From positions 126,296,001 to 126,360,000 of the forward strand of contig CM059431.1 of assembly GCA_030390025.1 (NCBI GenBank): a stretch of 64,000 bases of DNA, written 5' to 3'. This stretch comes from Squalus acanthias. Its lineage: Eukaryota. Positions 29,000 to 59,670 of the stretch are shown here, piece after piece. The notes below the pieces were generated by a model. The model was not told the DNA's origin and did not search any database. It saw only the letters and a program-made list of their open reading frames with translations. The stretch's first letter is position 1, and each line of letters opens with the position of its first letter. The translations under genes and the position numbers were made by a program.

Positions 29000-31490
29000 A
29001 TCGGTGTCTACTAAGGAGGTGGATGCTGACAAAATATCGGTAGAAGTCGAAGAGGTAGAAGCAATGGAAGGGGTGAAAATTGATAGACAGGATGTATGCT
29101 TAGAGTGGACAAGTCGCCTGGTCCAGATGGCTTGCATCCCAGATTGCTAAGGGAATTGGGGGAGGAGATAGCGGAAGGGCTTGCCATAATTTTCCAATCT
29201 TCCCTAGATGCAGGGGAGGTGCCTGAGGATTGGAAAGTGGCATATGTGACACCATTGTTCAAGAAAGGGTGTAAGGACAATCCTAGTAACTACAGGCCGG
29301 TCAGTTTAACATCAGTGCTGGGTAAAGTTTTAGAAACACTAATTAAGGAAAAAATTAACGGGCACTTGGAGAGGTTTAAGCTAATTAAGGAGAGCCAACA
29401 CGGATTTGTAAAAGGCAGATCATGTTTGACTAATCTAATTGAATTTTTTGATGAAGTAACAGAGAGAATTGATGAAGGGAATGCAATGGACGTTGTCTAC
29501 ATGGAGTTTTGGAAGGCATTTGACAAAGTACCACATAGAAGGCTGGTTAACAAAATTGAGGATCATAGAATAGGTGGGTCAGTGGCAGCTTGGATAAGGA
29601 ATTAACTTAAGGATAGAAAACAGTGAGTTGTGGTAAATGGCTGTTTTTCAGACTGGAGGATCGTAGACAGTGGTGTTCCCCAAGGGTCAGTGCTGGGGCC
29701 ACTGCTTTTTTTGATATATATAAATGCCCTGGATATTGGAATACAGAGTAGAATTTCTAAATTTGCCGATGACACCAAACAGTGAGGATGATACCAATCG
29801 ACTGCAACAGGACATAGAAAGACAAGCAGAATGGGCAGACAAGTGGCAGATGGAATTTAATACAGAGAAGTGTGAGGTGATGCATTTTGGCAGAAGGAAC
29901 AGGAGAGGCAATATACACTTAATGGCACAGTTTTAAAGAGTGTGCAGGGACAGAGGGACCTGGGAGTTAATGTGCATAGGTCCCTGAAGGTGGCAGGACA
30001 TATTGAGAGAGTGGTTAGCAAAGCATATGGGATCTTGGGCATCATAAATAGAGGTATTGAGTACAAAAGTAGAGAGGTTATGCTGAACCTTTATAAAGCG
30101 CTGGTTAGGCCACAACTGGAGTATTGCGTCCAGTTCTGGTCACCACACTTTAGGAAGGATGTGAAGGTCCTTGAGAGGGTGCAGAGGAGATTTACCAGAA
30201 TGGTTCCGTGGATGCGGGATATTAGCTACAAGGACAGGTTGGAGAAGCTGGATTTGTTTTCATTAGAGCAAAGGAGGTTGAGGGGTGATGGGATAGAGGT
30301 ATACAAGATTGTGACGGGTTTGGGTAGGCTAGACGGGGAAAGGCTGTTCCCACGAGTTGATGGTACAAGGACTAGGGGACACAGATTTAAGGTTTTGGGC
30401 AAGAGATACAGGGGGGATGTGAGGAAAAACATTTTTACGCAGCGAGTGGTGAGGACCTGGAATTTGCTGCCGACGGAAGTGGTGGACACGGAGACACTCA
30501 ATGTTTTCAAGGGGAGACTGGATAGACACTTGAGGGAAATAAACTTGCAGGGTGACGGGGATAGAGCAGGGGAGTGGGACTGAATGGATTGCTCCACAGA
30601 GAGCCGGCGCGGACTCGATCAGCTGAAAGGCCTCCTTCTGTGCCGTATGACTGTATGGGGGGAATTTTGCCAGCCCTGGGGAGGCAGGACTGCCGGGAAA
30701 ATGGCAGAAATTAGGAGCGGGTACCGAACCCGGCCCCAACCCACCTCCGTGCCATCTTCCCAGGAGGCGGGTCCCCGACTCGCGTTGGGACCCGTCTCCT
30801 CGAGCGGGAATGGGATTACAGGTAGTTAACAGGCAGTTAAGAGGCTTCTCCCCATTTTACCAACACAAGTGCGGGCTTCCCAACGTCGGGAAACCCCGTC
30901 AGGGTCAGCGAGGCAAGCAGAAGGGTCTACGGGGGTCAGAGGGTTCGAAAAGTGCGCTGTGAGGTGAGTAATGGGTGTAACTGTGGAGAGGTAAGTATGG
31001 GAGGTGAGTGAAAAGTGTTAGAAAAAGTTTCCTTACCTTTGTTTCTTCCTGCAGGCTTCAAACGTTGGGGATCTGAAGGCTCCTCATCTCCACGGCAGAG
31101 ATGACAGAATGGCTGCTGCATTCTCTGAAGCAGCAGCCATCTGATTTCTGCTCAGGCAAAAGGTTTTGTGAGTCTTGAGTACAAGGACTCACAAAAGAAC
31201 AGAGATTGTCAGTGTTTGACAGCTTCTCAAAGCTGTCAAATGATGACAATTCATCTGTCAAAAATTTTTGACAGATGAAATGCCATACACTGACATTCTC
31301 TGTCACCGGCTTTCCCTTAATTGGCCTGCTGAGCCCGCAGGGCGGGCTTAACAAGGTCGATCAAGGGAAAATAGCGTGGGTTGGCCGGATGTCATTGGGG
31401 ACGGGACTGAAACCCGACAAGCTGCAGTCCCGCCCCCAACGCGCCCCCATTGATAAAATTCCCCCCTATGACTCTATGACTATGACGATG
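29000..31490 (+). mobile_element. 5'-truncated CR1 LINE whose (ACTCTATG)n tail is interrupted by a MITE
   Basis: ORF2 pieces DKSPGPDG, NYRPVSLTS, QHGF..SCLTNL, RPQLEYCVQFWSP, FTQRVV; tail resumes at 31467. Confidence 0.92.
30657..31466 (+). mobile_element. Harbinger-type MITE, family D copy 2
   Basis: Perfect 12-bp TIR GGGGGGAATTTT / AAAATTCCCCCC; exact TAT TSD. Confidence 0.9.
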
Positions 31491-32401: not shown

Positions 32402-35269
32402 TCAGTATCCCGTCCCTGCCTTCTCTCCGTAACCCTTAACCCCTTTTGCCTGTAGAAATACATCTAATTCCCTCTTAAATATATTTAATGAGCTGGCGTA
32501 CACTGCCCTCTGTGGCAATGAGTTCCACAGGTTCACCACCCTCTGAGTGAAGAAATTCCCCCTCATTTCTGTCCTAAATGGTTTAGCCCTTATCCTTAAA
32601 TTATGTCCTCTAGTTCTGTTCTCACCCGCCAAGGGAAACATTCCTTCTGCATCTAGTCTGTCTAGACCTGTCAGAATTTTATACACTTCTATGAGGTCCC
32701 CTCTCAATCTTCTAAACTCCAGTGTGTACATCCCTAAACTACATAGTCTCTCCTCATAGGTCAATCCCGCCATTCCTGGTATCAGCCTGGTGAATCGCCG
32801 CTGCACCCCCTCCATGGCAAGAACATCTTTCCTCAGATGAGGCGACCAAAACTGTACACAGTACTCGAGGTGTGGTCTCACCAGTGCCCTGTACAGCTGC
32901 AGCAAGGTATCCCTGTTCCTGTATTCCAACCCTTTTGCTATGAAGGCCAGCATACCGTTTGCCTTCTTGATCGCCTGTTGCACCTGCATGCTCGCCTTCA
33001 GTGACTGGTGTACAAGAACACCCAGGTCTCTCTGTACTTCCCCCTCTCCCAATTTATTGCCATTTAAATAATAATTTGCCCTCCCGTTCCTGCACCCAAG
33101 GTGGATAACTTCGCACTTGTCCACATTATAGTGCATCTGCCATTTATCCGCCCAATCACCCAGTCTGTCCAAATCGCTCTGGAGCTTCCTGGTCTCCTCC
33201 TCTGAGCCCACCCCCCCTCCTAGTTTAGTGACGTCTGCAAATTTGGAAATGCTGCATCCGACTCCCTGATCCAGGTCATTAATGTAAATTGTGAACAGCT
33301 GGGGACCCAGGACAGATCCCTGTGGTACCCCACTTGTTACTGCCTGCCATTCAGAAAATGAGCCGTTTATTCCAACTCTCTGTTTTCTATCTGACAGCCA
33401 GTTCTCTATCCACGTCAATACTTTCCCCTTTATCCCATGAGCTTCAATTTTCCCTGCTAATCTTTTATGTGGGACCTTATCGAAGGCCTTTTGGAAGTCC
33501 AGGTACACCACATCTACTGGCTCTCCCCCATCTATTTTACCAGTTACTCCCTCAAAAAATTCCAATAGATTAGTCAAGCACGATTTACCCTTTGTAAATC
33601 CATGTTGACTCTGTCCTATCCTGTCCCCATTTGCTAAGTGCTCCGCTATTTCATCCTTAATGATGGACTCCAGCATTTTGCCCACAACTGATGTAAGGCT
33701 TACAGGTCTGTAATTACCTGCTTTTTGCCTACCCCCCTTTTTGAATAGTGGGGTAACGTTAGCTACCCTCCAATCCATGGGCACTGTTCCCGAGTCTAAT
33801 GAATTCTGAAAAATCATACTTAGTGCATCCGCTATCTCTAGGGCCACCTCCTTCAGCACCCTAGGATGCATGTTATCAGGCCCTGGGGATTTGTCCGCCT
33901 TCAATCCCTTTAGCTTCCTTAACACCATATCCTTAGAGATATTGACTTGCGTCAGTTCCTCCTTTGCAAATGTCCCTATTTTTCCCGATATCCCAGGGAG
34001 GTTTTTTGTGTCTTCCTTCGTAAAGACTGACCCAAAGTATGCATTTAGTTGGTCTGCCATTTCCTTATTTCCCGTTATATATTCCCCCGTATCTGACTGC
34101 AATGGGCCAACTTTGGTTTTCACCAGTCTTTTCCTCTTGATATACTTATAAAAGCTTTTGGAGTTAGTTTTTATATTTTCCGCCAGCTTGCTTTCGTAAG
34201 CTATTTTGCCCCTCTTGATTAAGCCCTTTGTCCTCCTTTGCTCTATCTTAAACTGTTCCCAATCTTCCGCTCTGGCGCTTTTTTTGGCTATTTTATACGC
34301 CCTATCTTTGGATTTTATGCTGTCTCTAATTTCCCCTGTTATCCACGGTTGAGTCACCTTTTTAGATTTCCTTTTATGCCAGATTGGTATAAACAATTTT
34401 TGCAATTTTGTCATTCTATCTTTAAATGCTTGCCATTGTTTATCTACCTCCAGTCCTCCCAGGAACGTTGTCCAATCAGACCTACTCAGTTCCCGTCTAA
34501 TGGCATCATAATTCCCCTTGTTTAAATTCAGGACCTTAGTATCTGAGTCAATTTCTTCGCTCTCCATTTCGAGTGAGAAATCGATCATGTTATGATCGCT
34601 CTGACCCAAGGGTCCCCGTACAACAAGATTACTAATTAGTCCCTTCTCATTGCACAGTACCCAGTCCAATATAGCCTGTTCCCGAGTTGGTTCCTCGACA
34701 TATTGATCCAGATAACCATCCCTTAAACACTCAAGGAATTCCTCCTCCTCATTATTTTTACTGATTAGGCTATTCCAATCTATATGTAAGTTAAAGTCAC
34801 CTATGATGACAGCTGTGCTCTTATTGCACGCTTCTCTAATTTCCCTCGTGATGCCCTCCCCAACCTCTATTTTACTATTTGGAGGCCTATATACCACTCC
34901 TATTAATGTTTTTCGCCCCTCGCTATTTCTTAGCTCCACCCATATAGATTCTGTATTAACTGAGTTAATATCCTTCCTTTCAATTGCATTTATCCCTTCT
35001 TTTACCAGCAATGCTACCCCTCCTCCCTTTCTTTTTTGTCGATCCTTCCTAAATACTGAATACCCCTGTATGTTAAGCTCCCAGCCCTGCTCACCCTGCA
35101 ACCATGTTTCCGTAATCCCAATTAGATCATAATTATTAACCTCTATTTCCACAGCTAATTCATCTACCTTGTTCCTGATGCTTCTCGCATTAAGGTATAA
35201 AACCCTCAGGCTTTTTTTATGCTCACATTTTTTATGAATTAGTTTGGCCCTTTGTTTTTTGTTCCTCAC
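32402..35269 (-). CDS. CR1 ORF2: APE endonuclease plus reverse transcriptase (catalytic D-to-V substitution)
   Basis: 955-aa open frame: YLNARS, GITETW, GVVYRPP, GDFN, SDHN (APE); [30 protein letters not shown] (RT); CR1 C-terminal domain. Confidence 0.96.
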   Translation of the reverse strand: MRNKKQRAKLIHKKCEHKKSLRVLYLNARSIRNKVDELAVEIEVNNYDLIGITETWLQGEQGWELNIQGYSVFRKDRQKRKGGGVALLVKEGINAIERKDINSVNTESIWVELRNSEGRKTLIGVVYRPPNSKIEVGEGITREIREACNKSTAVIIGDFNLHIDWNSLISKNNEEEEFLECLRDGYLDQYVEEPTREQAILDWVLCNEKGLISNLVVRGPLGQSDHNMIDFSLEMESEEIDSDTKVLNLNKGNYDAIRRELSRSDWTTFLGGLEVDKQWQAFKDRMTKLQKLFIPIWHKRKSKKVTQPWITGEIRDSIKSKDRAYKIAKKSARAEDWEQFKIEQRRTKGLIKRGKIAYESKLAENIKTNSKSFYKYIKRKRLVKTKVGPLQSDTGEYITGNKEMADQLNAYFGSVFTKEDTKNLPGISGKIGTFAKEELTQVNISKDMVLRKLKGLKADKSPGPDNMHPRVLKEVALEIADALSMIFQNSLDSGTVPMDWRVANVTPLFKKGGRQKAGNYRPVSLTSVVGKMLESIIKDEIAEHLANGDRIGQSQHGFTKGKSCLTNLLEFFEGVTGKIDGGEPVDVVYLDFQKAFDKVPHKRLAGKIEAHGIKGKVLTWIENWLSDRKQRVGINGSFSEWQAVTSGVPQGSVLGPQLFTIYINDLDQGVGCSISKFADVTKLGGGVGSEEETRKLQSDLDRLGDWADKWQMHYNVDKCEVIHLGCRNGRANYYLNGNKLGEGEVQRDLGVLVHQSLKASMQVQQAIKKANGMLAFIAKGLEYRNRDTLLQLYRALVRPHLEYCVQFWSPHLRKDVLAMEGVQRRFTRLIPGMAGLTYEERLCSLGMYTLEFRRLRGDLIEVYKILTGLDRLDAEGMFPLAGENRTRGHNLRIRAKPFRTEMRGNFFTQRVVNLWNSLPQRAVYASSLNIFKRELDVFLQAKGVKGYGEKAGTGY

Positions 35270-35343
35270 TCTTTTACCATTTATTTCTGTCTGCCTTTCA
35301 CTTTCCTCTATTTCACGACATAGGTTTCTAGCCCCCTGCCATA

Positions 35344-36291
35344 CTAGTTTAAATGCTCCCGAACTGCTTTATCAAAAATTACCCCGAGAACATCAGTTCC
35401 ATCTTTGCACAGGTGTAGACCGTCCCTTTTGTATAGGTCACACCTACCACAAAACTGGTTCCAATGCCTCAAAAATTTAAAACCCTCCCTCTTACACCAC
35501 TGCTCAAGCCACGTATTTAGCCTAACTATCCTGTTCTCTGTACTCTTACTAGCACGTGGCACTGGTGGTAATCCAGAGATTACTACCTTCGAGGTCCTAC
35601 TTTTTAGCTTGGCTCCTAACTCCCTAAATTCTACTTGTAGGACCTCTTCCCTTTTTTTAGCTACGTCGTTGGTACCAACATGTATCACGACAACTGGCTG
35701 TTCCCCCTCCCCCTCCAGAATGTTCTGCACCCGCGCCGAGACATCCTTGACCCTTGCACCAGGGAGGCAACATACCATCCTGGAGTCTCGGTCGCGACCA
35801 CAGAAACCCCTATCTATTCCCCTTACAATCGAATCCCCTATTACTATAGCCCTGCCACTCTTTTTCCCTCCCTTCTTTGCAACAGAGCCAGTCATGGTGC
35901 CATGAGCCTGGCTGCTGGTGCCTTCCCCCGATGAGTCATCCCCCCCGACAACAGCACCTAAGGCGGTGAACCTGTTGCTAAGGGAGACAACCCCAGGGGA
36001 TTTCTGCACTACCTTCCTGCCCTTGCTCTGCCTTTTGGTCACCCATGTACTATCTACGCTGGCCTTAACCTGCGGTGTGACCAACTCACTAAATGTGTTA
36101 TCCACAACCCTCTCAGAATCGTGGATGCTCCAAAGTGAGTCCATCCGCAGCTCAAGGGCCGTCATGCGGTCCCACATGAGCTGCAGCTGGACACACTTCC
36201 CGCACACATGGTTGTCAGGGACACAGGAAGCGTCCCTGATTTCCCACATGTTACAGGAGGAGCATGACACAGGTCCGAGCTCTACTGCCAT
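35344..36291 (-). CDS. CR1 ORF1: Zn-finger/leucine zipper plus SGNH esterase domain
   Basis: 315 aa; CSSC..CGKC followed by a heptad repeat; GDS, HVGTND and DGLH blocks of the SGNH hydrolase fold. Confidence 0.93.
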   Translation of the reverse strand: MAVELGPVSCSSCNMWEIRDASCVPDNHVCGKCVQLQLMWDRMTALELRMDSLWSIHDSERVVDNTFSELVTPQVKASVDSTWVTKRQSKGRKVVQKSPGVVSLSNRFTALGAVVGGDDSSGEGTSSQAHGTMTGSVAKKGGKKSGRAIVIGDSIVRGIDRGFCGRDRDSRMVCCLPGARVKDVSARVQNILEGEGEQPVVVIHVGTNDVAKKREEVLQVEFRELGAKLKSRTSKVVISGLPPVPRASKSTENRIVRLNTWLEQWCKREGFKFLRHWNQFCGRCDLYKRDGLHLCKDGTDVLGVIFDKAVREHLN

Positions 36292-36749
36292 GACTTAACC
36301 CTTATATTACTTTTTAATTTTCTAGTTTTAGTTTATTTATTGACTTTTGTTTTCCCGAAGCTTACTTAGACCAATGTATACTGTACTCCTCTTATTCCTT
36401 TTTAAACTAACCAAATCCCACTAGTTTTAGTTTTACTTTCTAGGAAGGTTTGAGGAAAGTACTTACCAGTTAGTCTTACCTCCCTGGTCTTTCGCTGACT
36501 TCCCGGTCTTGTGTCCCCTTGGTCCTACGCCGACTTCCCGCTCCTCCCGGTTCCTGCCCTGCTGAAAAGAAACTGAGACCAAAAAATTTGTGACCTCTGT
36601 TTTTAGACTGCTAAAAGACTAGTAGGTTAGAGGAGGAGGGCGGGTGGGGGTTCCTACTCTGTAGGAACTCGGGTTTAAGCCACCACCCTCCTTAAATGCT
36701 GTTCACCTGGGAGCTTCCCACCTGGTCCGCTTCCGGTCTCGTCTCTCCG

Positions 36750-37402: not shown

Positions 37403-40128
37403 ACATGTGCATCAACTGATGGATATAACTCCATTATGGGCAATCTCTCAAGAGTGGTAAAAGACCATTAATGTGACAGAAACTTACATGTAATCGTAGA
37501 AAGTGGAGTGATATATCTCGAGTTCCTTGGACAATGTTATGTCAATAGCTTTTATACAATTGAAAGATTATCGGAGTGAACTAGGTAATTCAGCTTGCTG
37601 GTCTGGAGTTGAATCTTCTGACTGCCATCAACTGATCAACCAACACTCCTATCAGCCCACAGGGACTATCAGCTTCATATTCTATTACAATGGTGTCTTT
37701 ATGCTTTACTTGATCTTGTAGTAGGAACAATTTACATTGAATAGTATTCTACTAACTTTGTTATTTTTAGATCTGTTTCAGTTGTCCCTTCATTTTTATA
37801 AAATCAGAGAAAGGCCTTCAGATCCTGTGAGCAATGGCAGTGATGTTGGAGATCAATTTATGGATCTCCAGGGTATTACACACAACAAGATTTTATGTAG
37901 GTACAGACCAGAGAATATTATTACCTTCCTTCACAACATTCCCCATGTTAGTATCATTGTCTGTTCAGTTAACTTGACTGTCAAGTCAGTTAGCTGGATG
38001 CATTCATCTAACATGGACAATGATGAAGGGTTTTCACAACTATGATTTAATTCTCTAAGACAGGAATATTCAGCAGCATCAATGGATTGTAATCAGCAAT
38101 AAAGCAAGGGGTGGAAGGAGACACAGGCCCTGGAATTATGCCATGGGATACTAATGCTCAACATGTTGATATAAAGTCAAGTTGTTAACCAATTGTAAAA
38201 TAAATGAGCCTCTTTTCAGTGCTTAAGTAAGTCAATCATTAATGAAAACCTGAGCACGTGCGATTTCTTATTATTTACAGCCGGATCATGATGTGCATTT
38301 AGTTAATTCATCTGGAGTAGGTATAAACCAAAGTTTCATGTGCAAAGGAGCCCTTAAAGGAATGGAGGCATTTTTGATGATTTTTGTCCCAATGGCTTTT
38401 CACTGCTCTTATAATGGCTTTTTAAAAGTTATTTTTCTATGATTTTTTTTTCTGGGATTTCCAAAATGTATTGTTTGTTTCAATTTTTTTCTGATTTTTT
38501 TGCGCTACTGGAACATTGTGAGAATGTTTTTGTGAAAACAAAAATGGACAATGTTGCAAAATTGCTGGGAAGCGAAGTGTAATTGAAGAATTTGCAATAA
38601 TCTGAAAGAAAAGGAAAATGTTATGAGTGATATGAAAAACCATGGTGTTTGCAGCACAGAAACAGACCATTTGGCCCAACAGGTCTATGCCGGTGTTTAT
38701 GCTCCACATGAGCCTCCTCACACCCTTCTTCATTTAACCCCATCAACATATCTTTCTATTCCTTTCTCTTCACGTGTTTATCCCCTTAAATGCTTCTATG
38801 CTATTCGCCTCAACTACTCCTCATGGCAGCAAGTTCCACATTCTAACCACTCTCTGGGTAACAAAGTTTCTCCTGAATTCCCTATTGGATTTATTAGTGA
38901 TGATCTTTTATTTATGGCCCCTAGTTCTGGTCTCGCCGCAGGTGGAAACATTTTCTTAGCATCTACCCTATCAAACTTTTTCATAACCTTAAAGACCTCT
39001 ATCAGGTCAGCCCTCAGTCTTCTCTTTTCTAGAGGAAAGAGCCCCATCCTCTTCAATCTTTCTTGATAGGTACAGCCTCTCATTTCTGGTATTCTACTAA
39101 ATCTTTTTTGCACTGTCACCAGTGCCTCTATATTCTCTTTATAATAATGAGACCAGAACGGTTCACAGTACTCCAAGTGTGGTCTAACCAAGGTTCTGTT
39201 GAAGGGATAATTACTAGTCCTAGCCCCTTTAGGGCTACCCCAGATCAGGCATATTCCTCAGATGTTCATTTTAACTAAAGTTTGAGGTAGCCGAATCCTA
39301 AAGACGCTTAATTGGGTCTAAAGGTCCAGACTAGCTCTCCCTAAAGGAAAGGAACAACCTGAAAATGTTACCGTCCTCCAGATAGCACTTTTAATAAGTT
39401 TAGCTGGACTGTAACATTCCGGATATTATGAGGGTCCGGAAAACTCCCCCAGAATTCTGCAACTCCTCACCAAAGAGTGTACAGAGATTGAGTTTGCGAG
39501 TTTGATACAGAAGTATTATGTGAGACTATTCTAAAAATATATAGATTTATTAAAGAACCGACATGTAATTTACAGTTGGTGAGTCAATCGCAACATTAAC
39601 AGTTCCAAAAAGAGAAAGATTTATAATCTTATTATCAGAGATCCTATTCTCAAATCTTAACTTCGCTACAGTTTTACAGTTCTTAGTCTTAGTCAGGATA
39701 TCCACCAAAATCAAATACCGTACCTTTTGATCCCCGAGGTACAAAGAGTTGGAGACTTACAGAGCCTGCATCTGAAGCCGAGAATCGCTTTGCCCCTTTA
39801 CAGCGAGTCTATTATCCTATTTGAGAGTTCAATATTTATACCCTTTTCCAGCGGTATCTCCTTTAAGGTTTTCTGTTGATGTAAGCTAATTATCTCTCGT
39901 CATTTTTCTGCTGACTTCTGCAATTCTTAGTCACCTCAGCTGGTAGCAATACAGACCTACGTCTCTCCTCTAGGTGTTCCAAGCTTACCATAAAAAATGG
40001 TGTAACAGCAGGTGCATTTTATTTAATGTCATTTTTACTAAGGCCTTCTGTTTGTGCCTCTTTACGAAGTGTAAATTAGAACACCTTAACCAGGGTGATC
40101 TATGCAATTCTTAGTCACCTCAGCTGGT

Positions 40129-41957
40129 GGTATTGCAGAATTGAATGTAGGAGGTATGATCAGTAAGTTCGCAGATGACACGAAAATTGGTGGGGTGGTA
40201 AATAGCGAGGAGGGAAGCCTCAGGCTACAGGATGATATAGATGGGTTGATCAGATGGGCAGAACAGTGGCAAATGGAATTTAACCCTGCAAAGTGTGAGG
40301 TGATGCATTTTGGGAGGACTAACAAGGCAAGGGAATACACAATGAATGGTAGGACCCTAGGAAGGACAGAGGATCAGAGGGACTTTGGTGTGCATATACA
40401 TAGATCCCTGAAGGCAGCAGGAGAGGTAGATAAGGTGGTTAAGAAGGCATATGGGATACTTGCCTTCATTAGCCGAGGCATAGAATATAAGAGCAGGGAG
40501 GTTATAATGGAGCTGTACAAAACGTTAGTTAGGCCACAGCTGGAATACTGCATGCAGTTCTGGTCGCCACACTATAGGAAGGATGTGATTTCATTGGAGA
40601 GGGTGCAGAGGAGATTCACCAGGATGTTACCTGGGTTGCAGCGCTTCAGCTATGAAGAGAGACTGGACAGGCTGGGATTGTTTTCCTTAGAGCAGAGAAG
40701 GCTGAGGGGGGACCTGATTGAGGTGTACAAAATTATGAGGGGCATAGATAGGGTAGATAGAAAGGAACTTTTCCCCTTAGTAGAGGGGTCAATAACCAGG
40801 GGGCATAGTTTCAAGGTAAGGGGCAGAAGGTTTAGATGGGATTTGAGGAAAAACTTTTTCACCCAGAGGGTGGTTGGAATCTGGAACTCACTGCCTGAAA
40901 GGGTGGTAGAGGCAGGAACCCTCACAACATTCAAGAAGCATTTAGATGAGCACCTGAAACGCCATAGCATACAAGGCTACGAACCAAGTGCTAGAAAATG
41001 GGATTAGAATAGACAGGGCTTGATGGCCGGCACGGACACGATGGGCCAAAGGGCCTCTTTCTGTGCTGTATAACTCTATGACTCTATGGGGGAAAAATTC
41101 AGTTGGTTGCGCCTCCCGTTAGCGCCTTAAGAGGGTGCTAATGGGGCGCAAAGCAACTAGCGCCCGGGCGTGGCGATTTTTGCGCCGCTCGTGAAATTAA
41201 CTAGACATTTTGCGGCGGTGCTAAACACTACCACCATGGTCTCCTGCGCCGGCAGATCGTGACGTCAGTCGAGTGCGCAATATCTCGGTAGCGTCCCGGA
41301 GCAGATATTGAGTGGCGCCCCCTGCATTACCGCCTGCCGCTAGCAACGACAGGTTGAGGGGAGTGTTTTGCATTCAGGAAGGGACTGGGGGAGTGCTATT
41401 TAAAGGTGACTGCTTCCTGCCTTTTTTTGTTGGCGACATTTTTGAACCACGCATTCTGAGAGAGAGAGAGACTTCTGGAGAGATTCAATGCTGTGTGAAG
41501 GAGTATTGGGTACTGAGCAGCACTTTGCAGGTTCATTTTGACTTGCCCTTCCTTGTATCGATTTAGAAGAGACTGTGGGGGCTACACTCTGAGCTCTTTC
41601 CCTGGTACTCTCCATTGTTCTTTCCAGCAGATTTGATGTACAGGTCACTTCAGGCCGAGATTCAAGGCTGCAATGAGCAGGATGTGGATGGAAAGCAAGA
41701 TCAACCCTTCCCTTTAAGAACTGGCTGGCGCCATTGTGTCTGTGTTCCATTGCTGACTGACATCACATGAGCTTCGCCAGCGCTCTGAGTTAGCGACTCG
41801 CTCCTCGGCCTTTCCGCCTTAAGACAGATGTGTAGCGCCTGATTTAGCGCTCCAATCACCTCCAGGGGCGATAAAAGTCAAGTTTGTCGTCGGTGGCGAT
41901 AATTAGCGCCAGGCGCTAATCTTTGCGCCCGGCCGATAATTGCGCCCCATGACTCTA
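40129..41957 (+). mobile_element. 5'-truncated young CR1 whose tail is interrupted by a MITE
   Basis: Open frame from [12 protein letters not shown] to ..RKWD (41007); (ACTCTATG)n tail at 41072-41088 and 41949-41957. Confidence 0.93.
41089..41948 (+). mobile_element. Harbinger-type MITE, family B copy 1
   Basis: Ends GGGGAAAAATT / AATTGCGCCCC; 3-bp duplication (ATG) in the CR1 tail; many TAGCGCC motifs; homologous to 62412-63119. Confidence 0.85.
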
Positions 41958-48611: not shown

Positions 48612-49352
48612 GGGCTGGATTTTGAATGACCCATGGAGTCGGGTTTGGAGGCGTGTGGGGGGTTAAATTTGCGGGGTCGGGGGTCCCGACCCCATCCCGA
48701 CTCCATGCAATTTTGACAAAATCAGTCGCGGGGTTCTCGACTCCGTCCCGCCTCCAAGAGGCGGGAGAGGCCATTAAAGCCCTTAACAAGCCCTAAATTG
48801 GCTCTGTAATGCCATTTTGAAACGTTTTAGCTAGTTTAACCCTTTTCTGACGTGAAGCACGCCTGGTGTGAAACACTCCAGTGATACCTAGCGGGAGCAC
48901 AAGTGGATAGCTGACTATCGGCTGCAGGTCCACTATTACAACGGAGATGTGATGAAGGTAGTAGTAGTATTAGGTCTGAAAGTCACCTCTGATGCTGCTG
49001 CATTCAATGTCTTCAGAGACTGCATGGCATTTGGTGTGAGAGGACTTGGATGCAAAGAAAATTCTTTCTCTCTCTCTCTCTCTTGCATCCAAGTCCACTC
49101 ACAGCAACAGCCAGGCAGTCTCTGAAACCAGGCGCACAGTCTCTGACCTGCAATGCAGCAGCAATGATGACATCATCAGAGGCGACTTTCAGACTGAAAC
49201 CACTAATTAATTCATGGGTTCCCACATGCTGGAACTCAATTGCCCAATTAAGTTAAAATTGCATCATTCATCCACATTAATCTGGAGTCGGGGGGGGAAC
49301 ACGAAATGCGGATGACACGACCCCAACCCGACCCCAAGACAAAATCCAGCCC
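48612..49352 (-). mobile_element. Harbinger-type MITE, family A copy 3
   Basis: 12-bp TIRs; exact GTA TSD. Confidence 0.93.
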
Positions 49353-49502
49353 GTAGTCTCTGTTGTAATGTCGAAAACACAGCAGCCAATTTGCACACAG
49401 CAAGGTTCCACAAACAGAAATGAGATAATGACCAGATAATCTGTTTTAGTGATGTTGGTTGAGGGATAAATATTGGCCAGTACTCCTCTGCTCTTCGAAA
49501 TA

Positions 49503-49726
49503 GAGAGGTCGCACAACACCAGGTTATAGTCCAACAGTTTTATTTGAAATCACAAGCTTTCGGAGCTATCGCTCCTTCCTCAGGTGAAGTAAATTTAAAT
49601 TTACTTCACCTGAGGAAGGAGCGATAGCTCCGAAAGCTTGTGATTTCAAATAAAACTGTTGGACTATAACCTGGTGTTGTGCGACCTCTCAATTTTGTCC
49701 ACCCCAGTCCAACACCGGCATCTCCG
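49503..49726. mobile_element. Perfect 188-bp palindrome plus 36-bp tail; Penelope-like terminal repeat derivative
   Basis: 49503-49690 is self-reverse-complementary about 49596/49597; 11-bp TSD CTTCGAAATAG at 49493-49503 and 49727-49737. Confidence 0.9.
49606..49643 (+). ncRNA. Minimal type I hammerhead ribozyme motif (mirror copy on the minus strand at 49550-49587)
   Basis: TCAC-CTGAGGA-A-GGAGC-GATA-GCTCC-GAAA-GC-TT-GTGA: CUGANGA and GAAA cores, 5-bp stem II, 4-bp stem I, palindromic AGCU in place of stem III. Confidence 0.75.
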
Positions 49727-50139
49727 CTTCGAAATAGTGCCATGGGATATTTTACATCCACCTGAGAGAGCCAACAGTGCCTCAGTTTAACATCTCATCT
49801 GAAAGACAGCACCTTCGACAGTGCAGCACTCCCTCAGCATTGCACTCCAGTGTCAGCCTGGATCATGTGCTGAAGTCTCACGGAGTGGGGCTCGAAACCA
49901 CAACCATCTGACACAGAGGCGAGAATGCTACCACTGAGCTAAAACTGGCACTATAACTATAATCCAACCATATTAAAGAAATATGGGAATCATCTGTAGA
50001 ACCTGGTATATAAACTCAGAGTAAGGTAGGGAGCATCGTTTAAATATGAAGATTTAGATGTTTCAGTGTTCAGAAATTTTACTGCTCCATTTTCAGTGCC
50101 TTTACTTTGCACTGATAGCAATTACCAGCTAAAACCATT

Positions 50140-56679: not shown

Positions 56680-59670
56680 AATCTGGTCATGATGAGGTCA
56701 TCCCTGGCCTCCCGGGCAACAATGTGCTCGGGTGCTGGTGGCATCTGGACCTCAGTTTCCTCCTACTCCTCCTGCTCATCTTCCAGCTGATGCTCCTCCT
56801 CCTCATTCTCCTCTTCCTCTGAAGAGGCTGTGCGCTCAGTGCCTTGCTCCTCATGCAGCGCTAATTCTTACTGCTGTGCTATGTTGTGCAGCATACAACG
56901 ATGATTCTGGAGACCCTGGCTGGTGCGTACTGAAGGGCTCCTCCAGATCTGTCAAGGCATCTGAAGTGCATTATCAGCATGCCTATTGTCTGCCCTATGA
57001 CACATCTGGTGGACATGTGGCTTTCATTATATCTTTCCTTGGCCTCAGTACTTGGCCTCCTCAAGGGTGTCATTAACTACATCTTCAGTGGGATAGCCCT
57101 TGTCTCCAAGCAGCCAGCCGGTAAATCTGTTTGGAGGAGCGAAGAGCTGAGGGAGGGTGGACTGGTGCAGGACGAAAGAGTCATGACAGCTGCCAGGGAA
57201 TTTGGCGCACACATGCATGATAACATAAGAACATAAGAAATAGGAGCAGGAGTAGGCCAATCGGCCCCTCGAGCCTGCTCCGCCATTCAATAAGATCATG
57301 GCTGATCTGATCCTAACCGCCAATCTACTATCTATCACAGAACCATCTCCTGCATCTAACAGAATTGCACACACGAAATAGGAGCAGAATCAGGCTACAC
57401 GGTCCCTGGGCCCGCTCCACTACCCACAGGGCCATGACCGATCCGAACCTAGACTCATGTCCAAATTCCTGCCCGCTCCCCGTAACCCTTAATGCCCTTT
57501 ACTTCTAGGAAACTGTCTATTTCTGTTTTAAATTTATTTAATGATGTAGCTTCTACAGCTTTTTGTGGCAGCATATTCCATGGACCTACCACCCTCTGAG
57601 TGAAGTAGTTCCTCCTCATCTCAGTTTTGAAAGAGCAGCCCCTTATTGTAAGACTATGTCCCCTAGTTCTAGTCTCACCCGTCATCGGGAACATCCTCCC
57701 CGCATCCACCCGATCCAACCCCTTCACAATCTTATATGTTTCAATAAGATCGCCTCTCATTCTTCTGAACTCCAATGAATAGAGTCCCAATCTACCCAAC
57801 CTCTCCTCATATGACCACCCCCTCATCCCCGGGATTAACCGAGTGAACCTTTTTTGCACTGCCTCGAGAGCAAGGATGTCTTTCCTTAAGTAAGGACACC
57901 AAAACTGTATGCAGTATTCCAGGTGCGGTCTCACCAATACCTTGTACAACTGAAGCAATACCTCCCTATTTTTATATTCTATCCCCCTAGCAATGAAAGC
58001 CAACATTCCATTTGCCTTCTTAATCACTTGCTGCACCTGCATACTAACCTTTTGAGTTTCGTGCACCAGGACCCCCAGATCCCTTTGCACTTCAGTACTC
58101 TCCAGTTTCTTGCCATTAAGATAATAAATTGCTCTAGGATTTTTCCTGCCAAAGTGCATCACCTCACACTTTCCAGTGTTGTATTCCATCTGCCAAATCT
58201 CTGCCCACTTACTTAGCCTGTCTATGTCCCCTTGCAGGTTTTTTATGTCCTCCTCACTCACTACTTTCCCTCCCATCTTTGTATCATCTGCAAATTTTGA
58301 TATGTTACACTTGGTCCCTTCCTCCAAATCGTTAATATAGATTGTAAAGAGTTGGGGACCCAGCACTGACCCCTGTGGAACACCACTAGTTACTGATTGC
58401 CAGTCTGAGAATGAACCATTTATCCCAACTCTTTGCTTTCTGTTAGATAGCCAATCCTCTATCCATGCCAGAATATTACCCCCAATCCCGTGATTTTTTA
58501 CCTTAAGCAATAATCTTTTGTGTGGCACCTTGTCAAATGCCTTTTGGAAGTCTAAATACACTACGTCCACTGGTTCCCCTTTATCCACTCTATATGTTAC
58601 TTCCTCAAAGAACTCCAGCAAATTTGTCAAACATGACTTCCCCTTCGTAAAACCATGCTGACTTTGTCCTATTAAATTATGATTATCCAAATGTCCTGTT
58701 ACTGTTTCCTTAATAATGGACTCCAAAATTTTACCTACCACAGATGTTAGGCTAACCGGTCTATAGTTACCAGCCTTCTGTCTACTGCCCTTTTTAAATA
58801 AGGGTGTTACATTAGCAGTTTTCCAGTCTGCCGGGACCTTAGCGGAATCCAGGGAGTTTTGAAAAATTATTACCAATGCATCTACAATCCCTACCGCCAC
58901 TTTCTTCAAGACTCTAGGATGTAAGCCATCAGGTCCAGGTGATTTATCCACCTTGAGTCCCATTATTTTACCGAGTACCACTTCCTTAGTGATTTTGATC
59001 GTGTTTAGCTCCTCTCCCCCTATGATGATCTTCCTATGGTTGCAGACTGAGGGAGTGGAAGCCCTTGCGATTCACAAACACTCCTGGGTGATGATTGGAT
59101 GACCTGATGGTCACATGTGTGCAGTCGATGTTGCCCTGCACCTGTGGGAAGCCAGCCAGAGTGGCAAAGCCAAACGCCCACTCAGTAGCACTGGTGTCAT
59201 CAGTGGCAAAGTTGATATAATTTTCTGACTTGTCAAATATGGTATCGGTGACCTGTGTGATGCATCTGTGGGTGGCCGACTGCGAGATGCCGCAAATGTC
59301 TGCTGCAGACCCCTGGAAGGAGCCTGAGGCGAAGAAGTTGAGGGCGGTGGTGACTTTGACAGCCATTGGTAAGGAGTGTCCACCCACTCCTCTGGGCTGC
59401 AGGTCTTGCTCCAGCAAGCTGCAAATGTCTGCGACGACCTGGCACAATAACCAGAGCCTCCTTTGGCACTGCTGCTCAGACGCGTTGAGGAAGCTCATCC
59501 TCTGCCTGTATACCCTGTGTAGGGAGTATCACCGCCAGTGAAGTGCAGCCCTGCGCTGATGCCCTCTGTCCTGTGGAGCATCACGTCATTGAGGAGAAGG
59601 TTGGTGGTGTTGTTGTTGTTGCTGCTGGTGTCCCTGCTGTTGCAGGTGTTGGGGCTCATCCTGGTCCTAT
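56680..59670 (-). pseudogene. Harbinger transposase interrupted by CR1
   Basis: [23 protein letters not shown] | [45 protein letters not shown]. Confidence 0.9.
57222..59021 (-). mobile_element. 5'-truncated young CR1 (open 508-aa RT frame, 57455-58981)
   Basis: Intact FADDT; (TTCTTATG)n tail; ATGAT duplicated at 57217-57221 and 59022-59026. Confidence 0.95.

Follow-up and report, generated by a model that had tools for sequence, protein, structure and literature searches.

The insertions of EN+ Penelope-like elements (PLEs), as set out in the available sections of PMC3846280 (for Pen2a_Av) and PMC8557442, comprise a head-to-head, inverted and 5'-truncated copy, a tail of 30-40 bp on one side, a short duplication and a palindromic junction. 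Both PMC8557442 and PMC11167929 treat the formation of these inverted ends and tails as an open question, and a self-priming or fold-back model is suggested in PMC3846280. For PAc, a Poseidon-clade PLE, the available part of PMC11167929 describes two internal RT start sites bounding the tail in vitro, cutting and extension of both strands, a predicted dimer of the PLE protein, and a pLTR hammerhead whose cleavage is protein-assisted and dispensable for in-vitro insertion. According to the accessible portion of PMC4209133, minimal PLE hammerheads are inactive as monomers and weak as dimers, and dual motifs lying close together on opposite strands, from truncated PLEs, were already noted there. 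Non-LTR retrozymes (bioRxiv 10.64898/2026.07.22.740005) are protein-free and PLE-derived, carry a type I hammerhead, and consist of units repeated head to tail in tandem, with two or more ribozymes in sense orientation.

Herein, we describe a palindromic insert of 224 bp in a 64-kb window (the whole stretch of DNA analysed, 64,000 nucleotides). It shares with the EN+ PLE insertions of PMC3846280 and PMC8557442 the head-to-head inverted truncated copy, the one-sided tail, the short duplication and the palindromic junction, and differs from those described in the available sections in being leader-only, without an ORF. The inverted terminal repeat invoked by an earlier reading of the sequence alone (hereafter the sequence-only reading) is therefore borne out, since inverted arm, direct arm, tail and duplication together reproduce the published anatomy. 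The perfect 188-bp palindrome with a 36-nt one-sided tail claimed by that reading was also exact: positions 49503-49690 consist of two 94-bp arms with a spacer of 0 and 0 mismatches, and the runner-up perfect palindrome in the 64-kb window has arms of 15 bp only. The inverted arm (49503..49595, minus strand, 93 nt, tail-less) covers the part of the PLE leader that begins 7 nt ahead of hammerhead stem I and ends with the pLTR, its reverse complement being equal to the intact parental copy L097 from position 1507. It is followed by two extra bases, TA (49596..49597), which are absent from the parent and make the centre unique in the genome. The direct arm with its tail (49598..49726, plus strand, 129 nt) runs from the PLE 5' leader to 4 nt before the ORF start codon and equals L097:1507-1635, the L097 ORF starting at 1640. 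The 36-nt PLE 'tail' itself (49691..49726, plus strand) lies on one arm only and fits the 30-40 bp tail of PMC8557442 and PMC11167929.

The insert is flanked by a target-site duplication, the left copy of which (49493..49503, plus strand, 11 bp) shares its last G with the inverted arm and is one base short of the expected 12 bp; the right copy (49727..49738, plus strand) comprises the 11 bp plus the T missing at the left. The 11-bp duplication reported earlier stands insofar as an 11-mer is repeated at both ends (49493-49503 and 49727-49737) and nowhere else in the window. The cut at this locus was probably staggered by 12 bp, with one base lost from the left copy, because the site fits TG-NN-[12]-NN-CA; its target signature (49489..49742) has TG at 49489-90 and CA at 49741-42, that is, TG-N16-CA before insertion. 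A sibling insertion, L041, shows the 12-bp form at the same repeat site. The host is a SINE-like repeat on the minus strand (49380..49950, bounds approximate) that is split by the insert, and it is high-copy: many public DNA contigs of paralogous copies skip the insert and continue unbroken across the insertion site. Of the proposal that the insertion lies in a DeuSINE, the high-copy SINE-like host with uninterrupted paralogues was confirmed; the repeat may be a DeuSINE. ARAGORN found no tRNA gene anywhere in the 64-kb window.

The parent was reached from the arms. When the genome was searched with the right arm, 40 candidates were scored and yielded 79 matches. In L027, the same arm is joined to the end of a GIY-YIG-like frame, a stretch with 2,118 candidates in the genome, the best 40 of which are 99-100% identical. 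Full-length copies were traced via direct pairs about 3.14 kb apart and five were fetched; an 892-aa frame is open in three of them (L097, L098 and L099) and broken in two. L097 has two pLTRs 3,140 bp apart enclosing the 892-aa ORF, and its protein matches Pfam RVT_1 (E 1.4e-8) and carries the motifs DKG, YIDD, a CX4CxxC linker and VVY..YIG. The Pfam search of this protein did not report a GIY-YIG domain, the assignment resting on motifs, and a PDB search with the EN region gave no match. The order within the ORF is RT, CX4CxxC and a GIY-YIG with two internal cysteines, the same as in Neptune/Nematis-type PLEs (RT, CX2-5CxxC linker, C-terminal GIY-YIG) in the available part of PMC8557442. The CX2-5CxxC linker between RT and EN (residues 753-761), a motif common to Nematis, ties the element to the Neptune and Nematis clades of the same source. 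The parent would accordingly be classed as a Neptune-type PLE, with Neptune chosen over Nematis by linker motif and host range.

The 129-nt and 93-nt arms of the window are each 100% identical to the intact L097 leader, from position 1507. Since both arms are found letter for letter in L097, the tail corresponds to the stretch of 5' leader that immediately precedes the start codon, and 49596-49597 are the only non-parent bases. All the hallmarks of an EN+ PLE insertion are thus present at the locus: a parent with RT and GIY-YIG, an inverted truncated copy, a one-sided tail of 30-40 bp and a duplication. These results bear out the PLE origin put forward in the sequence-only reading, supply the autonomous element with RT, GIY-YIG and an identical leader that it had proposed to look for, and agree with its view that the insertion is recent, the arms being 100% identical to an intact copy. 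Hundreds of such stumps exist in the genome, and the window insert is a short and unremarkable PLE insertion among them. As a separate observation, L027:1-40 and 1640-2790 form a long head-to-head insertion within a 37-bp tandem repeat array.

Each arm had been said to hold a minimal type I hammerhead. A pattern search of the window returned two such motifs and no others, one at 49606..49643 (plus strand) and its mirror at 49550..49587 (minus strand), and their stems covary. Judged by sequence pattern and stem covariation, the plus motif has no helix III and is composed of stem I (49606-09/49640-43), core (49610-16), stem II (49618-22/49627-31) and GAAA (49632-35), with a predicted cut after 49639 (U at position 17). 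The conserved core CUGANGA...GAAA..UH without helix III is present; because the motifs were selected with a pattern that included it, its conservation is in part built in. The motif resembles the minimal PLE hammerheads in the accessible portion of PMC4209133 in CUGANGA, one extra base before stem II, G10.1-C11.1, the missing helix III, the palindromic AGCU and a 4-bp stem I; it differs from them in that position 17 is U in the window's PLE family, where the motif is a putative ribozyme. In PAc the start codon lies within stem II (PMC11167929), whereas in the present family it is found 126 nt downstream of stem I. An AATAAA lies downstream of each hammerhead motif (49649..49654, plus strand, mirrored at 49539-49544), 44 nt after the start of the parental stem I, and would likely serve as the pLTR poly(A) signal. 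Rfam gave 24 matches on the window; the hammerhead family was absent from them, and generic hairpin (miRNA) matches were seen only below the gathering score.

Covariation was assessed on 23 hand-picked natural variants, for which the core and stem II pairing were required and which include 6 rows from another PLE family. Eight of the nine pairs in stems I and II change on both sides, with 97% of cells paired, and the covariation score was 0.62 against at most 0.05 for slid controls; the covariation across copies looked for in the sequence-only reading was therefore found. In RNA structure prediction, a single arm forms stem II with a probability above 0.99 and stem I with about 0.8. The whole-element RNA is predicted to fold into one hairpin of -179.5 kcal/mol in which the pairing probability of stems I and II is about 0, and the ribozymes in such a transcript are thus predicted to be locked. 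This goes against the earlier expectation of an active ribozyme RNA from either strand; each strand carries one sense ribozyme, the second copy being antisense. Across the genome, 113 loci join at the predicted ribozyme cut region. A hand count over the 50 loci listed found 18-19 of 100 arms ending exactly at the predicted cut and 3 ending one base further; 22 of these 50 loci lie at an AAGCTT palindrome, and the pattern edge biases the count. Arm stops at the predicted cut are a weak hint of hammerhead cleavage. Two further groups of motifs were seen: subfamilies in which the core reads CCGACGA, with C at hammerhead position 4, and stem II has a compensatory U-A pair (L071, L074, L082 and L171), and a second, different minimal-hammerhead family, probably another PLE (L031:2393-2431, L161:918-956 and L062:317-354).

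The genome contains 8,277 exact tail matches and 3,455 arms whose loop II is of the 4-nt type seen in the window, for which inverted partners lie 36 to 2,008 bp away among the first 100 rows. Back-to-back hammerhead junctions with gaps of 0-30 nt number 666 in the genome, and among the 50 loci listed their centres are many and different. Most of the 30 best-scoring loci have one common centre. The centre nearest to the window's, an exact AATT, is found at 44 loci genome-wide with near-identical ends, and the window's own 12-bp centre is unique in the genome. The 44 AATT-centre loci fall into six stem-II types (12/10/10/8/2/2), each also represented in long or full-length copies. Both arms are of one stem-II type in 40 of the 44, the four exceptions being private, and the arms are identical in 33 of the 44, so that arm homogenisation, suggested earlier for the zero mismatches at the window locus, is not needed. 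Among the rows listed, the two arms agree in their variant in all 26 young inverted pairs. The idea that the 44 copies are one family with a single fold point was considered and rejected on the varied junctions and the six parent subfamilies. Because six parent subfamilies share the AATT centre, the 44 same-centre copies arose independently and repeatedly at a 4-bp palindrome of the parent.

These data weigh against the proposal that the insert is a retrozyme-like self-propagating unit. A palindromic element of retrozyme or MITE type that encodes no protein, descends from a master copy of its own and is mobilised by the PLE protein would account for 44 loci with one exact centre and near-identical ends, and non-autonomous PLE derivatives are known (bioRxiv 10.64898/2026.07.22.740005 and PMC8557442, available parts). 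However, these loci make up little of the 666 varied junctions, trace back to six parent subfamilies and lack a private marker common to them all, and the window's centre, for which a common fold-back point had been sought, has no second copy. The insert has no tandem array and no internal TATA-like box, and its ribozyme fold is predicted to be blocked. It is head-to-head with one sense ribozyme per strand, unlike retrozymes as described in the available part of the bioRxiv source, with which it shares protein-free status, PLE derivation and the type I hammerhead; neither a tandem organisation nor an own lineage sharing one unit was found. We regard this reading as very improbable, and it is already largely refuted. 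An assembly or library fold-back artefact, named as a possible refutation by the sequence-only reading, is hardly credible. The palindrome is perfect, and public DNA contigs at the locus are swamped by repeat paralogues and confirm neither the locus nor an empty allele, but the locus has a duplicated target, a family-typical target motif and an asymmetric tail, and 118 of 126 sibling insertions have their own duplications. The PLE insertion in the window was likely built where it landed rather than self-copied, and it is most likely a dead end.

Target preference was determined on 126 two-armed insertions from all fetched loci, selected on the element and not on the target. A duplication of at least 7 bp was found in the 118 insertions mentioned above, mostly of 12-14 bp with a mode of 12 bp. 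In the 48 exact 12-bp duplications, T occurs at -4 in 42, G at -3 in 45, C at +3 in 44 and A at +4 in 38. TG-N16-CA is present at 77 of the 118 sites and in 45 of 63 similarity clusters, against a background of 1.1% of random window positions, and the window site is an exact TG-N16-CA fit with one base lost from the left duplication. The position in the host SINE-like repeat was hit at 8 of the 118 sites. The junctions overlap the target by 1-3 nt. In the available descriptions of EN+ PLE insertions, duplications are of 8-10 bp and targets are microsatellite or AT-rich sites, whereas here the duplication is about 12 bp and the target is symmetric; PAc has the cut motif ATT (PMC11167929, available part), in contrast to the TG-N16-CA target and the 1-3 nt overlap seen here. 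At 26 of the 118 sites the insertions occupy the same position in another genomic repeat, in both orientations (L001, L005, L006 and others).

The lengths of the two arms were compared in 64 two-armed sampled copies, 51 of which have a complete tail-less inverted arm ending at the pLTR end; the other 13 were set aside as running beyond the fetched sequence, ending elsewhere or having a tail upstream. In 23 of the 51 the tail-less arm extends past the tail arm on the 5' side by 10 nt or more, in 8 it is the tail arm that extends past the other by as much, and in 20 the two ends lie within 10 nt. Neither arm contains the other in 23 of the 51 copies, and simple fold-back of one cDNA therefore cannot give them; for this reason the term 'fold-back product', used in the sequence-only reading, is not supported. 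The arm ends correlate, with a Spearman coefficient of 0.75 in the 100-copy sample. With parent identity, anatomy, varied fold points and independent origins established, the best explanation, which we hold with considerable confidence, is a very short insertion of an abundant PLE that consists of two head-to-head 5' leaders, likely from two primed reverse transcripts. Two primings joined by microhomology seem probable, the in-vitro analogue being the Poseidon-clade element of PMC11167929, a member of another family.

In the reaction that we propose, a dimeric endonuclease would nick both strands about 12 bp apart at a TG-N16-CA site. Priming would begin from one 3' end at the pLTR end and from the other some 40 nt beyond it, at the end of the tail; these positions may correspond to the pair of in-vitro start sites of PAc (PMC11167929). 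Both cDNAs, of about 90-130 nt, would stop near the RNA 5' end, probably a transcription start just above the hammerhead. The ends would be joined by microhomology or by a few extra bases (TA here), giving the palindrome, the one-sided tail and the duplication, and the hammerheads would be passengers from the parental pLTR.

An unlikely alternative keeps the same PLE origin and lets one strand prime itself or fold back at a short palindrome to form the inverted arm, with the tip trimmed later. Junctions do gather at small palindromes, namely AATT (44 loci), GTAC and AAGCTT (22 of 50 listed), the arm ends are correlated as given above, the arms carry the same subfamily variants, and uneven arms are possible through deletion at the palindrome tip. 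Nevertheless, fold-back from a tail-primed strand predicts a tail arm that is never shorter, and the observed counts, 23 to 8, run the opposite way. It also offers no reason for the inverted arm to end where the second known RT start site lies, and microhomology would be no less likely at a junction between two cDNA ends. Two-RNA templating, suggested by five older loci differing between arms, was likewise considered; it was not adopted because the search pattern demanded the rarer base, four of the five loci have 2-4 other differences, and the young pairs are concordant (26/26). In each of the five loci (L265, L266, L267, L269 and L271), all of them older copies with two arms, one arm has G and the other C at hammerhead position 7, probably through mutation picked out by the search pattern. 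Short templated inserts copied from the element itself are present at L091 and several junctions, which suggests end-joining repair.

The positions at which the arms stop were determined for the first 100 tail matches on contig 1, two of which had no alignable arm and were binned by default. An adjacent inverted arm is present in 65 of the 100 sampled tail copies; one of these calls (L247) looks spurious. Stops fall within -16..+14 of stem I in 33 of the 100 tail arms and 27 of the 65 inverted arms, and for both arms in 22 of the 100 copies. The stop density in this interval is about 1.1 per nt, against 0.15-0.36 in neighbouring bins. Genome-wide, 1,427 of 14,115 arms (10%) depart from the template right after base -2; at the control base -15, 62 arms depart, out of at least about 3,250. 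Inspection of 30 of the -2 stop loci showed a true junction at every one. A TATA-like box begins at -34, 32 nt upstream of the -2 stop. The context of base -2 is initiator-like. Because of this box and this context we read the peak at -2 as the RNA start, an assignment that we favour by a little. The window's own arms stop at -7, five bases past the main peak, and the window copy therefore does not itself mark the proposed start. About 55 of the 100 tail arms extend past -16, and a longer RNA is therefore needed for these copies. In two copies that reach into the ORF, L011 and L101, the 5' pLTR starts at about -7 and about -12, near the stop hotspot.

The hotspot could instead reflect an RT block by a folded or protein-bound hammerhead, a reading that touches only this stopping step and that we consider doubtful. 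The stops spread over -7..+14, into the ribozyme, and the hammerhead is helped by the PLE protein in PMC11167929 (available part). The bases after the -2 stop are 51 C, 39 G and 10 T (hand count, 100 listed rows), many of them from the opposite arm or the flank, so that there is no excess of G as a cap signature. On the other hand, an RT moving 3' to 5' would meet the structure at about +27..+38, and the peak is on the far side of it, at -2, 32 nt below the TATA-like box.

The window locus is one ordinary stump among hundreds, and the family is of modest interest. The insertion anatomy (PMC8557442 and PMC3846280) and opposite-strand hammerhead pairs (PMC4209133) are already known; the two-priming reading, the start-site peak and the TG-N16-CA target for PLEs were absent from the open literature searched. 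With the chances evenly balanced, the thousands of stumps may preserve, in the genome of a living vertebrate, the traces of PLE insertion by a dimeric GIY-YIG/RT protein at a twofold-symmetric TG-N16-CA site, with a 12-bp stagger and two cDNAs from leader start sites; the centres would then map the mRNA 5' end to the base and, in a smaller class, the hammerhead cut. If so, reconstitution with the intact 892-aa copy would settle the origin of PLE inverted repeats and tails. The family is young, and its intact ORFs, its preference for a symmetric target and its junction statistics yield exact predictions for in-vitro work.

Several other features were seen in the 64-kb window. A putatively CR1/L2-like LINE at 32405-36294 (minus strand) has two long open frames, an ORF1 of 316 aa that contains a GDSL esterase-like domain and an ORF2 of 988 aa that encodes endonuclease and RT, and more RT fragments lie at 57458-59071 (minus strand) and 40099-41004 (plus strand). 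The perfect palindrome at 31250-31279, with 15-bp arms, apparently extends imperfectly on both sides. Nested inverted repeats with arms of 44, 24 and 19 bp surround a short CT microsatellite at 48974-49194; they are high-copy in public contigs and possibly MITE-like.
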